64,000 nucleotides of DNA from Stylophora pistillata (lineage: Eukaryota), in NCBI RefSeq assembly GCF_002571385.2, contig NW_019218420.1:10756-74755 (forward strand), read 5' to 3'. Shown here piece by piece: positions 3,471 to 61,480 of the stretch. A model generated the notes under the pieces. That model did not search any database. It saw only the letters and a list, made by a program, of their open reading frames with translations, and was not told where the DNA came from. The translations under genes were made by a program, and so were the position numbers. Numbering within the stretch: the stretch's first letter is position 1; every line of letters begins with the position of its first letter.

Positions 3471-3542
3471 GAAATGTAGGGCATCAACCACAGACCTCCA
3501 CCGGACTCTATTTTTGGTAGCTCTCTTTGGCTCCCCCAAGGT
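3471..3542 (-). mobile_element. 3' tip of an RTE-clade LINE
   Basis: Minus strand reads TLGEPKRATKNRVRWRSVVDAL, the typical RTE ORF C-terminus (AxxRxxWRxxVxAL). Confidence 0.6.
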
Positions 3543-4339
3543 AATGTGCTTCTTATTAAACTTGTCATGCACATTTTGCCTCAAGGACTGCTTTGAACAA
3601 CCTCTTGAAACCACAAAAACCCTGTGTAGTGTTGCATAGTGGAGCTGAAGCTCATTTTATCTCTTGAATGAATTAGCATGTTGTATGAGATAAGGACCCT
3701 AGCCAAGCACAAGAGACGAACTGATGGTGCCCACAGATATATGGTGTGTTAACTGTTGGATGCTACTTATGAGGTTTTCTTGAGGGTTCTTGAGTGTGAG
3801 GATGCTCTTAACATATCAAATAGTGGTCCTGCCAAGGTGCAAAAGGTATTCTATGTTGTTAACCCTTCAAGCACCAGAAGACACTGATGAAACATGAACC
3901 CCTATTCCCTGTACTCAACTGGCACTACAGGACCTAAATGTCTTTTTTCTACCATGCCCTCAAAAATGCCTTTCAGAGGTATTTATAAAACTATAAAGCA
4001 AAAGTTGCTCAGCGAGAAATAATATTTAATTCTAGACCCTAGTTACAGCAAACATTTGATTGTAGAGTGAATTTGAGCTGCCTCATTATGGCACAGCTAA
4101 GAAACCTCCATTATTTACTTTATACTTGACAATTGCTTTGCAATGAAATGGCCTAAACTCTATTAGATAAGGAAAATGTACAAAAAAATCCCTTAAAATT
4201 GAAATGGATAATATAAACAATAAAGAGAAAGTCAAGCAACGTCTCAAGTCCTAATTGTTAAAGAGAATTGATGAAAAATATCCTGGTCTATAAGTTTAGA
4301 TTCCATGCATTGTGATGCATCAGAACAGGTCACCAATGT

Positions 4340-6330
4340 AGTAATATTAATAATAAATAATAATAATAATAAAAGTCTTTATTCCATCATAAGATAAAAC
4401 TACATATCTTATGTTACAATGAATTTGGAAAAACTATAGAAATCTACATACATATGAATTAAAAAGTATGTCATCACAATAAATGGAGCTTAAATATCAA
4501 CCTACTTACGAAGGTGTTCATAAAGTGCTGTGTATTAATTTTCGGGCACGCGCAGCCTTTTTCCTAAGATTGTGTACATATGTCTTTTGGACAGGAATGA
4601 TGTTTTTCATGGGGTGGCAATCTGTTGATTTTAGTTTCTTCAAAATGTTTCGGTGTTGTTTGTTTAAAAGGTTCTTGATAAAAACTGGAAATGAGATAAA
4701 ACTGCGTTTATGACATCAGTGTAAAAAATTTTGTACAACCGTAAGATCGGACTCGGATGCCCCATAGGCTGAAAGTGCATAGCTAAAATTAGCCACAACA
4801 ATGGATATAAAAAGATGATCAATCTCTGCCTGTGAGTAATGTTCCTTTCTCAATGTTCGTAGGACGTGTAAACACTTGTTTTCTTTGACAAGCTTAGTTC
4901 TTACATGCTCATCAATTTTCAGTCACTCTGTAAAGTTACTCCTAGTAAAACAAAGCTATTACATTGGGGAATATTATTAATTGGAGAGTAGAGTACATTA
5001 TGATTTTTCTTTCTAACAACCAGCTCTTTACATTTGCAAGGGTTGCAGACCATTCTATTGTCTTTACACCATGTTAAGAACTGTCCTACTAAGTCAGCAG
5101 ACGGGTCACTATTCCTAGTGATGGGTGAAAGAATAGTGGAATCATCGGCATATTTAAAAAGCACAGGGCAACCATTAAAAAAAATCTCCAAATTGTTCAA
5201 AAATATATTAAAAAGATACAGTCTGCTTACACTACCTTGTGTGGTTCCTCTATTGACAGACTTCCACTGTCCAAAAAAATTATAACTAACAACACGTTGT
5301 CTTGCATAGAGGAAACTATGATACCAATTGATAATGTACGGATTTTGACGTAGCTGTTTCAGTTTGGCAGACAAAATAGCATGGTTCACAAAATCGAAAG
5401 CCTTACTGGAGTCCATGGTAAAAATTCGCACTGCGCTACAGTCATTATCTAAATACTTGTATGTCTGGTGCTGGATAGCAAGCAAGGCATTTGTGCAACT
5501 ACCCGCCTGTCTATATGCAAATTGGGTGTGGCTCAGGTTGTTCTCAATGACTGACTGTGCTTGTGTACGATACACGACCTTCTCGAACAACCAGGCAATA
5601 ATGGGAGTCACATTAATACCACAGTAGTCTGAGTCCTCTATAGGCATGTTCACTTATGGGAGAGGATTAACATTTGCCCTTTTCCAGGAGTCTGGCCATG
5701 TATGAGTAGAAAGCGACAGATTCCAAACGTGAGTGATGATTGGTGTGAGTAGCTCAGCACAGTCTTTCCAGATCCAGTATGGGAGGTCGTCTGGTCCCGT
5801 TGCCGTTTTCTTTACGTGAACTAAAGTATTCCAGATACACTGCTCAGATATTTTCGGGGGCTTTACACTGTCCGGGATATCCATATCACTAGGTCTAACG
5901 TAAGTGTCATCACAGCACAGGTTGGCGAAGTAGCTGTTCAGATGAACTAGAGAGTTCTTGTCCAAATTTATCAACGATGACCTGCGACGCTGCAATAGGG
6001 CGTCCATGCCCTTCCACCACTCACTGCTACCAATGGGAGCCAGTTTTCTTCTGTTCTCGGTTATCAACTCAGAAATGCCCTTATTAAATAAAGACAGACG
6101 TTCCTTGTTGTTTAAAGATATATGGAACTTAGTCCTCAGCATAGACTTGACTAATGGGGACATCCAAACTGTGTCACGCGATGACATGCGTACAGATTTT
6201 TGCGGCATAAACTTATTCATCACTGCACGAATCTTTACCTCAAGCACCTCGACCGCCTTGTTTATGTCCACCTCATTGAGGGCTTTAAGCAAATGGGTTT
6301 GTTGTAGTGCTATCAGCCAATTTCTGTGTT
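4340..6330 (-). mobile_element. 5'-truncated, degenerate CR1/L2-group non-LTR retrotransposon (reverse transcriptase)
   Basis: ORFs 5654-6292 and 4919-5653 contain KKTATGPDDLP, DSSKAFDFVNH, GTTQGSV and KYADD. Degenerate C-terminus to about 4550, then a (TTA)n tail at 4343-4372. Confidence 0.9.
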
Positions 6331-7571
6331 TGAGACAATCTTTGCATGGTCCTTTACTGAAAGCAATGTGGCAGTGTCCAGCCTTGGACTGTCCAGAACC
6401 AGCTGTTCTTCAGTGGTTACTGAATTCATTAAGGAGATTTTGGGCAAGTTCTATGTGAAAAGGTTGCAATGTTTTGGAAGGATGATTAATTGCCTTTTTC
6501 TCCAATAAAAGAGTTGACAATTCCTACATCCAAACATAGCCAGAATGAACACTTTAGAACTTGTTTCATAGCTGATCTTGCAGATCAACTCCTTCGATGC
6601 TCTTGTTGAAGTACGTGTCATGAGAACAATGCAAAAGTTCTACAGGACAAAATGCAGAAAAGACACATCAAGTAATCTAAAGAGGAGACTAAACATAAGG
6701 CACCAGACTTATGATAACAAGTGTGGACTGTCCTAATCAATTCTAACAAAGGAGTCAAGCAACACAACATCCAAAATATCAGAACTATCCGAGCCTACTA
6801 GTCACCAGTCCCTTTGCCTGTAGTAGCCTTTCATGACACTATGCACTTTATTTATAGTTCCGTTGCATTCTTTAAGGTTCACTCTCTTGTTTCGAGAGGT
6901 TTTTCACCATGTAAATGAAGTCAATAATGCAATATTACATATCTATTGTTATTTTCCTTTTTTTTTTCCATTTGATACTTGAACGCAGTAAAATATACCC
7001 GCCGACTTTCAACAGAATAGCCGCCGGAGCTCCGGCGGGTGCCGGGTCTTATTGAAAGCACTGATAATTGGTGCTAGTCACATTATACTTGGTACTTTCC
7101 ACATTATACCTAGTATGAAAGCCATTATACTCATTGCTATCCGCTTTATACTCGGTGCTTGGATCAATTTTAGCGGTGCAGCTTTCTTTATATTCGGTGG
7201 CTAGTTTGTCATGCTCTGTGCTTTTTCGATAGTCAGTTTGCACCTGATTTGTGGTCAGTTTAGCATCTGATCTGGTGCGAACATCTTGCTACTCGGTGCA
7301 AACAACTTGCTACTCGGTGCTCAGCAATTCGGTTCATAGAGCATTATATTCGGTGTGTTTGCAAGATGGTATTTTGCCGAGCCAGTATATTTGGTCATCG
7401 AAACTACTCCAAAGCACATGCTCGCATCATAATCGTGAGACTGGTCCCCAGAGCCAATCATTTCAATTGATCATGTGGTCAGTGAGCGGCTCTGGGACGA
7501 GAATTGGCGATATCTGCAGTCAGCGAACGTGACGTATATACACCAATCACAAAATGTTGACCATGTAGACT

Positions 7572-7868
7572 ATGTCTTCGGTGTTGAGAAAATTGAAAAT
7601 GGACAGTTTGATAGATCGGTTTGAAGACGAAAAAATATCGCCTTACATTGTTTGTAAACTGCCCCTGCATGAACTCAAGCAACTTGGCCTACAAAATCGG
7701 TGCGACATGATGACTTTAAGAATAGCCTGTGTAATGTTTGGTGCGGAACAACCAATGAAATTTCCAAGTGCTCTGGGACTTCCTGCTTTCGATATTCCAA
7801 AGTCAGTGCTTGAATTTTATTTGGATGAAGACTTCCCTATCTCAGAAAATGCTAATATGATGTCATGA
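7572..7868 (+). pseudogene. SAM-like N-terminus followed by the start of an HTH (IS3EU-like transposase 5' end), truncated
   Basis: LIDRFEDEKISP...ELKQLGL...DMMTLR (SAM-like), then PAFDIPKSVLEFYLDEDFPISENANMM (PxFxIxxxxL...F.I..IA.M HTH lead-in). Confidence 0.5.
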
Positions 7869-60768: not shown

Positions 60769-60804
<36 letters not shown>

Positions 60805-61290
60805 GTAGTTTATTAACACTTCTGACAGTTAAAAAACTGAATAAACAGTGTAATTTTACAAGGATATTAAAAAGAATCTTACTAGATACCAATAATAAAG
60901 TCTATTTACAATAATAAGAATTAGAATAATTGCAGTAAGTATTACAATAATAGTTAAGTCTGCGAATACCTAAAAGTAAAAACGTCATTTGCTCTTTTTG
61001 TTCTTTTCATTTTTGTTGTGGCTTTGGTATTTCCTGATCTTAACTGATAAGGTATAGAACTTGTCATAGCTTGTGGAGCTAAGAAAGATATGGGGTGGTC
61101 TTCATTCCTCATTTTCGCCATCAAATTGTTACAAACGAATATCCTATGATCTACCAACAATGACAATTTTGCCTGGTCTAGAGCTTGTGGATAACTAAAG
61201 TTTGGGAATTTAATTTTTAAGGCTCTTTTTTGTATGGATTCAATAGCATCAGAGAGGCATGCTATTGAATACATATCTAATGCTATATAG
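60769..61290 (-). mobile_element. 5'-truncated CR1/L2 LINE 3' end with a (CAT)n tail
   Basis: LSDAIESIQKRALKIKFP..SY..AL...L..L..R motif. AATAAA followed by (CAT)n at 60769-60804. Confidence 0.8.
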
Positions 61291-61299
61291 AATACCGAT

Positions 61300-61480
61300 A
61301 CCCACAGAATCGCCATTCTGGCCACTTTCTTGAGTTTAGTCCTTGATTGTTCTTCCTTTCTGTTTTAACCGTGCCAACTGTCTCCTCCGTTCCGCTGGTA
61401 ATCATCTTTAATTGCTGACTGGTCTGCTCTGTGGCTTTGCATATATCGATTGCTTTAGACAGAGAGAGATCATTTGCTAG
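61300..61480 (-). mobile_element. Gypsy gag fragment
   Basis: DLSLSKAIDICKATEQTSQQLKMI (LTLxKAxxxC motif). Confidence 0.55.

Follow-up and report, generated by a model that had tools for sequence, protein, structure and literature searches.

A one-way pile of transposon relics under a spliced antisense transcript in the coral Stylophora pistillata, with a predicted role as a piRNA source

The window analysed here, a stretch of 64,000 nucleotides from the coral Stylophora pistillata (positions 10756-74755 of contig NW_019218420.1, which measures 164,649 bases in a genome of 398 Mb), holds, together with the flank to its right (contig 74.8-131 kb), a real, transcribed, one-way pile of transposon relics, whose role as a source of PIWI-interacting RNAs (piRNAs) is predicted. 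Insertions of many classes lie mostly on the minus strand, and a spliced, non-coding transcript runs over them on the plus strand. At a probability of roughly 0.55, this plus-strand unit is the likely precursor of a one-strand piRNA cluster, probably about 120 kb in extent, with piRNA output as the predicted part of the proposal. Coordinates are window positions unless marked as contig positions.

A spliced plus-strand transcript over the pile

The earlier note on this sequence had predicted a plus-strand transcript antisense to nearly all of the elements, an expectation that was borne out by the mapping of a first exon and of a 29-kb intron that lies over the pile. The parts of the unit are as follows.

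300..2300, plus: CpG-rich start region and putative promoter (CpG observed/expected ratio about 1.0)
1639..1737, plus: exon 1, with its 5' end at or before 1639 (ends of poly(A) contigs; GT donor at 1738)
1738..30898, plus: intron 1, 29,161 nt, GT..AG, full of transposon relics (spliced contigs; CpG observed/expected 0.43)
30899..31033, plus: exon 2, KolX relic with an in-frame stop (spliced contigs, 0 differences; match to a PF20478-bearing protein)
31546..31945, plus: exon 3, last KolX exon, with a presumed 3' end (contigs reach 31821-31887; AATAAA at 31922)

RNA was mapped from four runs on 21.5-41.4 kb and from four runs on 14.2-34.1 kb. Of the 24 RNA runs listed, 20 contain part of the interval 24-34 kb, and some of the runs with the sequence are labelled 'coral metagenome'. 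The structure that joins exons 1, 2 and 3 was recovered in three poly(A) runs from two studies, and the joint from 31033 to 31546 (a 512-nt GT..AG intron on the plus strand) in all three of these runs and in one raw read. The three poly(A) contigs share a single 5' end of 76-97 letters, at first unplaced, for which window 1706-1735 is an exact match and the only one in the window. In a genome search, the sequence from 1510 to 2240 proved to be single-copy, with only a 76-bp repeat at 1433-1509 recurring, and for the region of exons 2 and 3, copies elsewhere matched over short pieces only, at no more than 71-85%. The possibility that the 31033-31546 splice belongs to the mRNA of another Kolobok copy was thereby ruled out: exon 2 shows 0 differences, its region is single-copy at high identity, and the 5' end falls at 1706-1735. 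The open reading frames (ORFs) of exon 1 amount to only 2 and 8 amino acids, and the longest ORF of the spliced model, which is about 630 nt long, is one of 66 amino acids. About 300 bp upstream of exon 1 lies a long hairpin repeat (1048-1330), and near 1600 stands an E-box-like word.

Exons 2 and 3 match proteins bearing PF20478, a P2X7 C-terminal-like domain; a tblastx search of both exons against background sequence gave no match. KolX has been described as an accessory gene of the Kolobok Kol0 elements, P2X7 ballast-like and assigned to PF20478 (PMC9587614). The coral copy resembles it in that protein match, in adjoining a relic of a THAP transposase on the minus strand (33.0-35.2 kb), which is likely its partner gene, and in exon boundaries that are common to related KolX copies. 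Because those boundaries are shared, exon 1 of the host transcript must use the element's own splice acceptor. Unlike the KolX of Kol0, the coral copy is broken, and exon 1 of the host, which lies at a distance of 29 kb, is spliced onto it. This amounts to an exon trap set by a transposon gene that lies in the sense orientation, and it shows how sense insertions can truncate the RNA.

Raw reads from the low-copy bins of the intron place the first mate mostly on the minus strand (approximately 10 vs. 2 in X22, 9 vs. 2 in X23 and 38 vs. 5 in X24, as estimated from depth tables). Two internal calibrations give the meaning of that orientation: a spliced GT..AG raw read also has its first mate on the minus strand, and at 17.5-20.2 kb, over the Kolobok-type element, the reads bear the variants of other copies and run the opposite way (approximately 15 vs. 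3), in the sense direction of its transposase. The intronic reads therefore point to plus-strand RNA. In the total-RNA run X1, unspliced contigs cover 28 of 30 bins and extend to 41.4 kb.

Orientation of the insertions and CpG decay

The unit of the strand count was the independent insertion, with pieces merged over a distance of 3 kb and two-gene elements set aside. All regions were searched alike, by tblastn and phmmer, against a library of transposon ORFs drawn from elsewhere in the genome, labelled mostly by Pfam and in some cases by eye, and including five families that were seeded from the same contig as the window. Short 'long terminal repeat' (LTR) matches, which turned out to be a high-copy repeat within one library ORF, were removed before the final count (71 in all, five of them on this contig and earlier scored as plus). 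Among the top rve matches on the small contigs C1404, C4371 and C4401 were integrases of the bacterial IS3 type, probably contaminants, which were kept out of the library.

The window contains 12 minus-strand and 2 plus-strand insertions, beside 2 two-gene elements (p=0.013), or 12 of 15 on the minus strand once a plus-strand relic at 29.4-30.8 kb is added (p=0.035); an early count with 5-kb merging had stood at 9 vs. 2 (p=0.065). Pfam domains of mobile elements fall on 19 minus-strand and 2 plus-strand ORFs, among 300 of the 309 window ORFs of at least 60 amino acids. Given that the genome could be cut into some 6,200 such windows, the bias of this one would by itself fail a correction for multiple testing, and the fair test is provided by the right flank, which was unseen when the earlier note was made: there, 11 of 13 insertions are on the minus strand (one-sided p=0.011). 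For window and flank together, 23 of 28 single-orientation insertions are on the minus strand and hence antisense to the transcript (p=0.0009). The bias is as strong in DNA transposons (12 of 14 antisense) as in retroelements (11 of 13) among the 27 insertions so counted, only two of which are Gypsy-type. The true plus-strand exceptions are a long interspersed nuclear element (LINE) at 13.5-14.1 kb and the relic at 29.4-30.8 kb. Since identities to copies elsewhere range from 98% down to approximately 66%, the insertions accumulated over a long time.

Twenty control windows of about 60 kb each were treated in the same way, ten of them systematic (these contain few elements) and ten transposon-dense (picked from match tables in which strands were visible); none was skewed, the lowest p value being 0.34. 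Pairs of insertions from different classes were on the same strand 132 times and on opposite strands 142 times in the controls, vs. 110 and 40 times on this contig. Per region, 11-12 element classes were counted in the pile and at most 8 in the controls, a comparison made with a library partly seeded from this contig. The direction of the bias is thus as the earlier note had described it. The number of minus-strand units is about half of what it gave (24 of 30, against 12 of 15 insertions here), as pieces and calls made by eye had been counted. About ten such fragments found no support, among them Sola2, a YR relic, Penelope, the SAM element, a piggyBac at 3.1-3.9 kb and a gag at 9.6-10.6 kb; the labels Sola2, YR, Penelope, SAM, BEN and penton gave no significant Pfam match and were left uncounted, the relic at 29.4 kb excepted.

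The observed/expected ratio of CpG is about 1.0 around exon 1, drops to 0.1-0.5 shortly downstream, remains at 0.43-0.47 over the rest of the window and is again about 1 or higher at contig 127-136 kb, the depletion spanning most of the approximately 113 kb that follow the start region. A ratio as low as that of the window was found in only 1 of the 20 controls. Individual elements were compared with copies elsewhere: the LINE on this contig has lost 20-29 CpGs, vs. 2-12 in each of 12 other copies, and losses exceed those of copies elsewhere in the Kolobok-type element (22 vs. 8), in a RAG-like element of the flank (13 vs. 4) and in a piggyBac (5 vs. 0). Methylation in cnidarians is reported to concentrate on introns and on the transposons that these contain, and in the germ line to follow transcription (PMC8857917, PMC13345969); in combination with the decay, this points to one long-transcribed domain that would reach from contig 12 kb to about 127-131 kb.

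Pfam searches returned no host protein domain and no host exon in the pile. They covered the 300 window ORFs above and 148 of the 238 remaining ones and, in the flanks, the longest 150 among 720 ORFs together with 150 of the 159 short ones on the plus strand; very small exons could escape such a search. Rfam, run over 144 kb to see whether the unit hosts small nucleolar RNAs, microRNAs or other structured RNAs, found only two copies of a tRNA-like repeat, and unknown families would escape it. The domain is followed by an apparently intact, plus-strand gene for an UNC5-like netrin receptor at contig 136-154 kb, approximately 124 kb from exon 1, whose own ATG exon (contig 136.2 kb) sits in its own CpG-rich zone and whose 5' part is depleted of CpG. 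Its named homologues come from stony corals; one supplement of PMC13343488 contains no unc-5 or netrin entry.

A second one-way pile was noticed at C16:517001-557000, where Gypsy, RAG-like, piggyBac, LINE and Penelope-type relics all lie on the plus strand and CpG observed/expected is mostly 0.2-0.8. That region was chosen after its same-strand matches had been seen; it suggests that such loci form a class in the genome. In all three ISL2EU-type elements compared across both piles (window 20136-23622, L003:3451-5231 and C16:544-549 kb), the strand shared by most insertions carries the exonuclease gene and the opposite strand the transposase, a sample too small for a test.

Precursor, intron or by-product

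As a one-strand piRNA precursor, the locus might work as follows. A polymerase II promoter would transcribe the region in the germ line, and gene-body methylation would result; elements landing antisense would be kept, the long or unspliced RNA yielding piRNAs against their active relatives, and elements landing in the sense direction would mostly be lost, their splice acceptors and poly(A) sites shortening the transcript. The sense-lying KolX is a direct example: it captures exon 1, and within it, near 31.9 kb, the short poly(A) form seems to terminate.

A rather unlikely alternative is that the region is an ordinary long intron, exon 1 being the first exon of a long non-coding RNA or a distant 5' untranslated exon of the UNC5-like gene, with sense insertions purged as traps and no piRNAs made. 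The pile does lie literally inside an intron, exon trapping by a sense gene was observed at KolX, and both the bias and most of the CpG loss end just before the UNC5-like gene; that gene, however, possesses an ATG exon and a CpG-rich zone of its own, and the searches over 120 kb yielded no host exons. The CpG loss itself would fit any transcribed cnidarian gene body (PMC8857917, PMC13345969), whereas the number of element classes, with the reservation about the library, exceeds that of every control. The earlier note had held that spliced exons spanning the window would favour an intron. Such exons are present, but the host is non-coding and the exons downstream are those of a trapped transposon gene, and intron and precursor are for that reason two readings of one structure. 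The precursor is favoured because a short RNA without a long ORF, mostly a broken transposon gene, offers little for selection to protect, whereas a long antisense RNA would be a good target.

It is more improbable still that the locus is a neutral by-product, in which stray transcription from a CpG-rich promoter, perhaps that of an upstream minus-strand gene, enters a gene-free nest whose bias arose by chance or from a transcription-linked preference of insertion. Chance has to contend with the recurrence of the bias in unseen sequence, opposite to an independently found transcript, and with the flat controls, the transposon-dense ones included, even if the window was picked for its bias among some 6,200. 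An insertion preference would have to span unrelated integration chemistries. A by-product accords with the second pile on C16, with the low expression and with the fact that the sequence directly upstream could not be read, but the CpG decay implies long-standing germ-line methylation and not a recent leak.

Several observations also weigh against a piRNA precursor. The raw-read counts behind the strand assignment are tiny, with mates scored separately and six of approximately nine X23 reads sharing one start, and the coverage in X1 may include DNA, as there was no silent control stretch. The one mature form recovered stops near 31.9 kb, with the antisense relics removed by splicing, and piRNAs would therefore need unspliced RNA or presumed read-through past that point; the RNA mapping reaches 41.4 kb, and the extent of approximately 120 kb rests on strand bias and CpG loss. 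Five of the 28 single-orientation insertions are sense to the transcript, AATAAA is not depleted on the plus strand (97 vs. 108), CpG observed/expected in the right flank is only 0.64, and the CACTA-like copy shows no excess loss of CpG (6 vs. 8). Predicted piRNA clusters in corals had a transposon density below expectation (PMC13343488), and intronic LINEs and LTR elements of ordinary mammalian genes show an antisense bias for which no piRNAs are needed (PMC3088655).

Like flamenco and flam-like loci of Drosophila, the coral locus is a long, gene-free pile mostly antisense to one spliced transcript with a discrete start and a short first exon (PMC10643416, PMC5155165); flam is transcribed by polymerase II and spliced, and its first exon is constitutive (PMC5155165). 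The authors of the work on the fly loci propose that sense insertions may end transcription early, of which KolX supplies one case. The strand bias of the flam-like loci is, however, driven only by Gypsy (PMC10643416) and the fly locus works in follicle cells, whereas the coral bias covers DNA transposons, LINEs and LTR elements; the coral locus differs also in its 29-kb first intron, in the CpG decay over its body and in a piRNA output that is so far predicted. Because the bias is not Gypsy-specific, the locus is not flam-like, and 'flamenco-type', the term used in the earlier note, was too strong. What it does share with unistrand clusters in general is a spliced, polyadenylated, one-strand precursor from a discrete start (the start site itself being unmapped) and a transposon content mostly antisense to that precursor.

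One-strand output is the rule in the same phylum: 402 of 457 clusters are unistrand in Nematostella (PMC5731801) and 61-68% in Anemonia (PMC5793845). Corals show piRNA signatures, and proTRAC clusters of three corals are enriched in DNA transposons and LTR elements (PMC13343488). Those clusters are defined by small-RNA reads, whereas the present locus is known from its anatomy, and the available text of the literature on cnidarian piRNA clusters yielded no description of promoters, exons or transposon orientation. The likeness to mammalian intronic transposons lies in the loss, by selection, of sense insertions that interfere with splicing and with the formation of 3' ends (PMC3088655); the mammalian analysis left DNA transposons aside and describes the bias for LINEs and LTR elements of protein-coding genes, whereas the coral host lacks a long ORF.

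The locus offers exact coordinates (first exon, 29-kb intron and trapped terminal exon) at which small-RNA reads would decide the question. A positive outcome would mean that the transposon-trap model also applies to corals and DNA transposons, and would link it to gene-body methylation; after a negative one, the locus would stand as a clean example of selection on orientation within a non-coding intron. In a broader and more tentative version of the proposal, the locus could be a master piRNA locus of a cnidarian, about 120 kb long and one of a class, with a conventional promoter and a gene-body-methylated body, acting as a trap for DNA transposons and retroelements alike, with the reach of the precursor set by exon trapping by a sense transposon gene. 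If that were true, promoter-driven one-strand traps would be common to cnidarians and bilaterians and could be found by orientation and CpG decay alone.

Elements of the window

The elements that were placed in the window are these.

4331..6281, minus: LINE (Pfam RVT_1; 93-97% to 12 other copies; excess CpG loss)
9089..9457, minus: piggyBac transposase fragment (PF13843, weak match)
13365..13607, minus: second piggyBac fragment, not colinear with the first (Pfam and library search)
13498..14103, plus: LINE reverse transcriptase fragment, a plus-strand exception (Pfam and library search)
16681..19901, minus: THAP-bearing DNA transposon, Kolobok-type (Pfam; related copies elsewhere are expressed)
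20136..23622, DDE_Tnp_4 plus and YqaJ/C48 minus: ISL2EU-type two-gene element (Pfam)
23978..25844, minus: Gypsy-type pol relic (Pfam and library search)
25725..26468, minus: zf-C17orf113 fragment, hAT-type (Pfam)
27560..29451, minus: unnamed transposase-like gene, broken (29 longer homologues; colinear minus-strand matches; Atlas leads only)
29423..30805, plus: unnamed coding relic, a plus-strand exception (15 homologues)
33018..35236, minus: THAP-transposase relic (Pfam and library search)
38113..38604, minus: PF20700 transposase relic (Pfam)
45865..47110, minus: Gypsy-type pol relic (Pfam and library search)
48459..49968, minus: Copia-type pol relic (Pfam)
50797..51837, minus: young piggyBac (98% to a copy elsewhere)
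55708..59857, plus: CACTA-like transposase, a plus-strand exception (library search)
60957..61364, minus: LINE 3' fragment (library search)

Superfamily names that lack a Pfam match (Kolobok-type, CACTA-like, RAG-like, hAT, ISL2EU and Polinton-type) are provisional labels. The two-gene organization that the earlier note had proposed for ISL2EU was confirmed by the two genes on opposite strands. For the gene at 27560..29451, 'RAG-like' is that note's unverified name; its homologues are unnamed transposase-like proteins of up to about 1,000 amino acids, some with a SAP domain, and gave no Pfam transposase match. The relic at 29423..30805 may be a Polinton-type minor capsid gene, judged by a motif only; scanning of 8 of its 15 homologues returned no relevant Pfam name, and no usable Atlas match was obtained.

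Two duplications in the window are probably due to assembly redundancy or a second haplotype, and were scored once: the sequence at 61994-63846 repeats 51381-51837, 52614-53155 and 59057-59895 almost identically, and a 220-bp duplicate at 20795-21430 adjoins an assembly gap. Between the arms of the latter, a 195-bp piece (21016-21210), which also adjoins the gap, reaches high depth in three poly(A) runs, and its reads share one 255-letter loose end without a match in the window. An unclassified element at 7074-9130 is bounded by 202-bp inverted ends and contains, on the plus strand, an ORF that is weakly SAM-like; a tandem array with a period of approximately 105/211 bp lies at 41421-42194, and a high-copy repeat that holds a tRNA-like match is found at 47157-47392 and again at L001:1025-1329.

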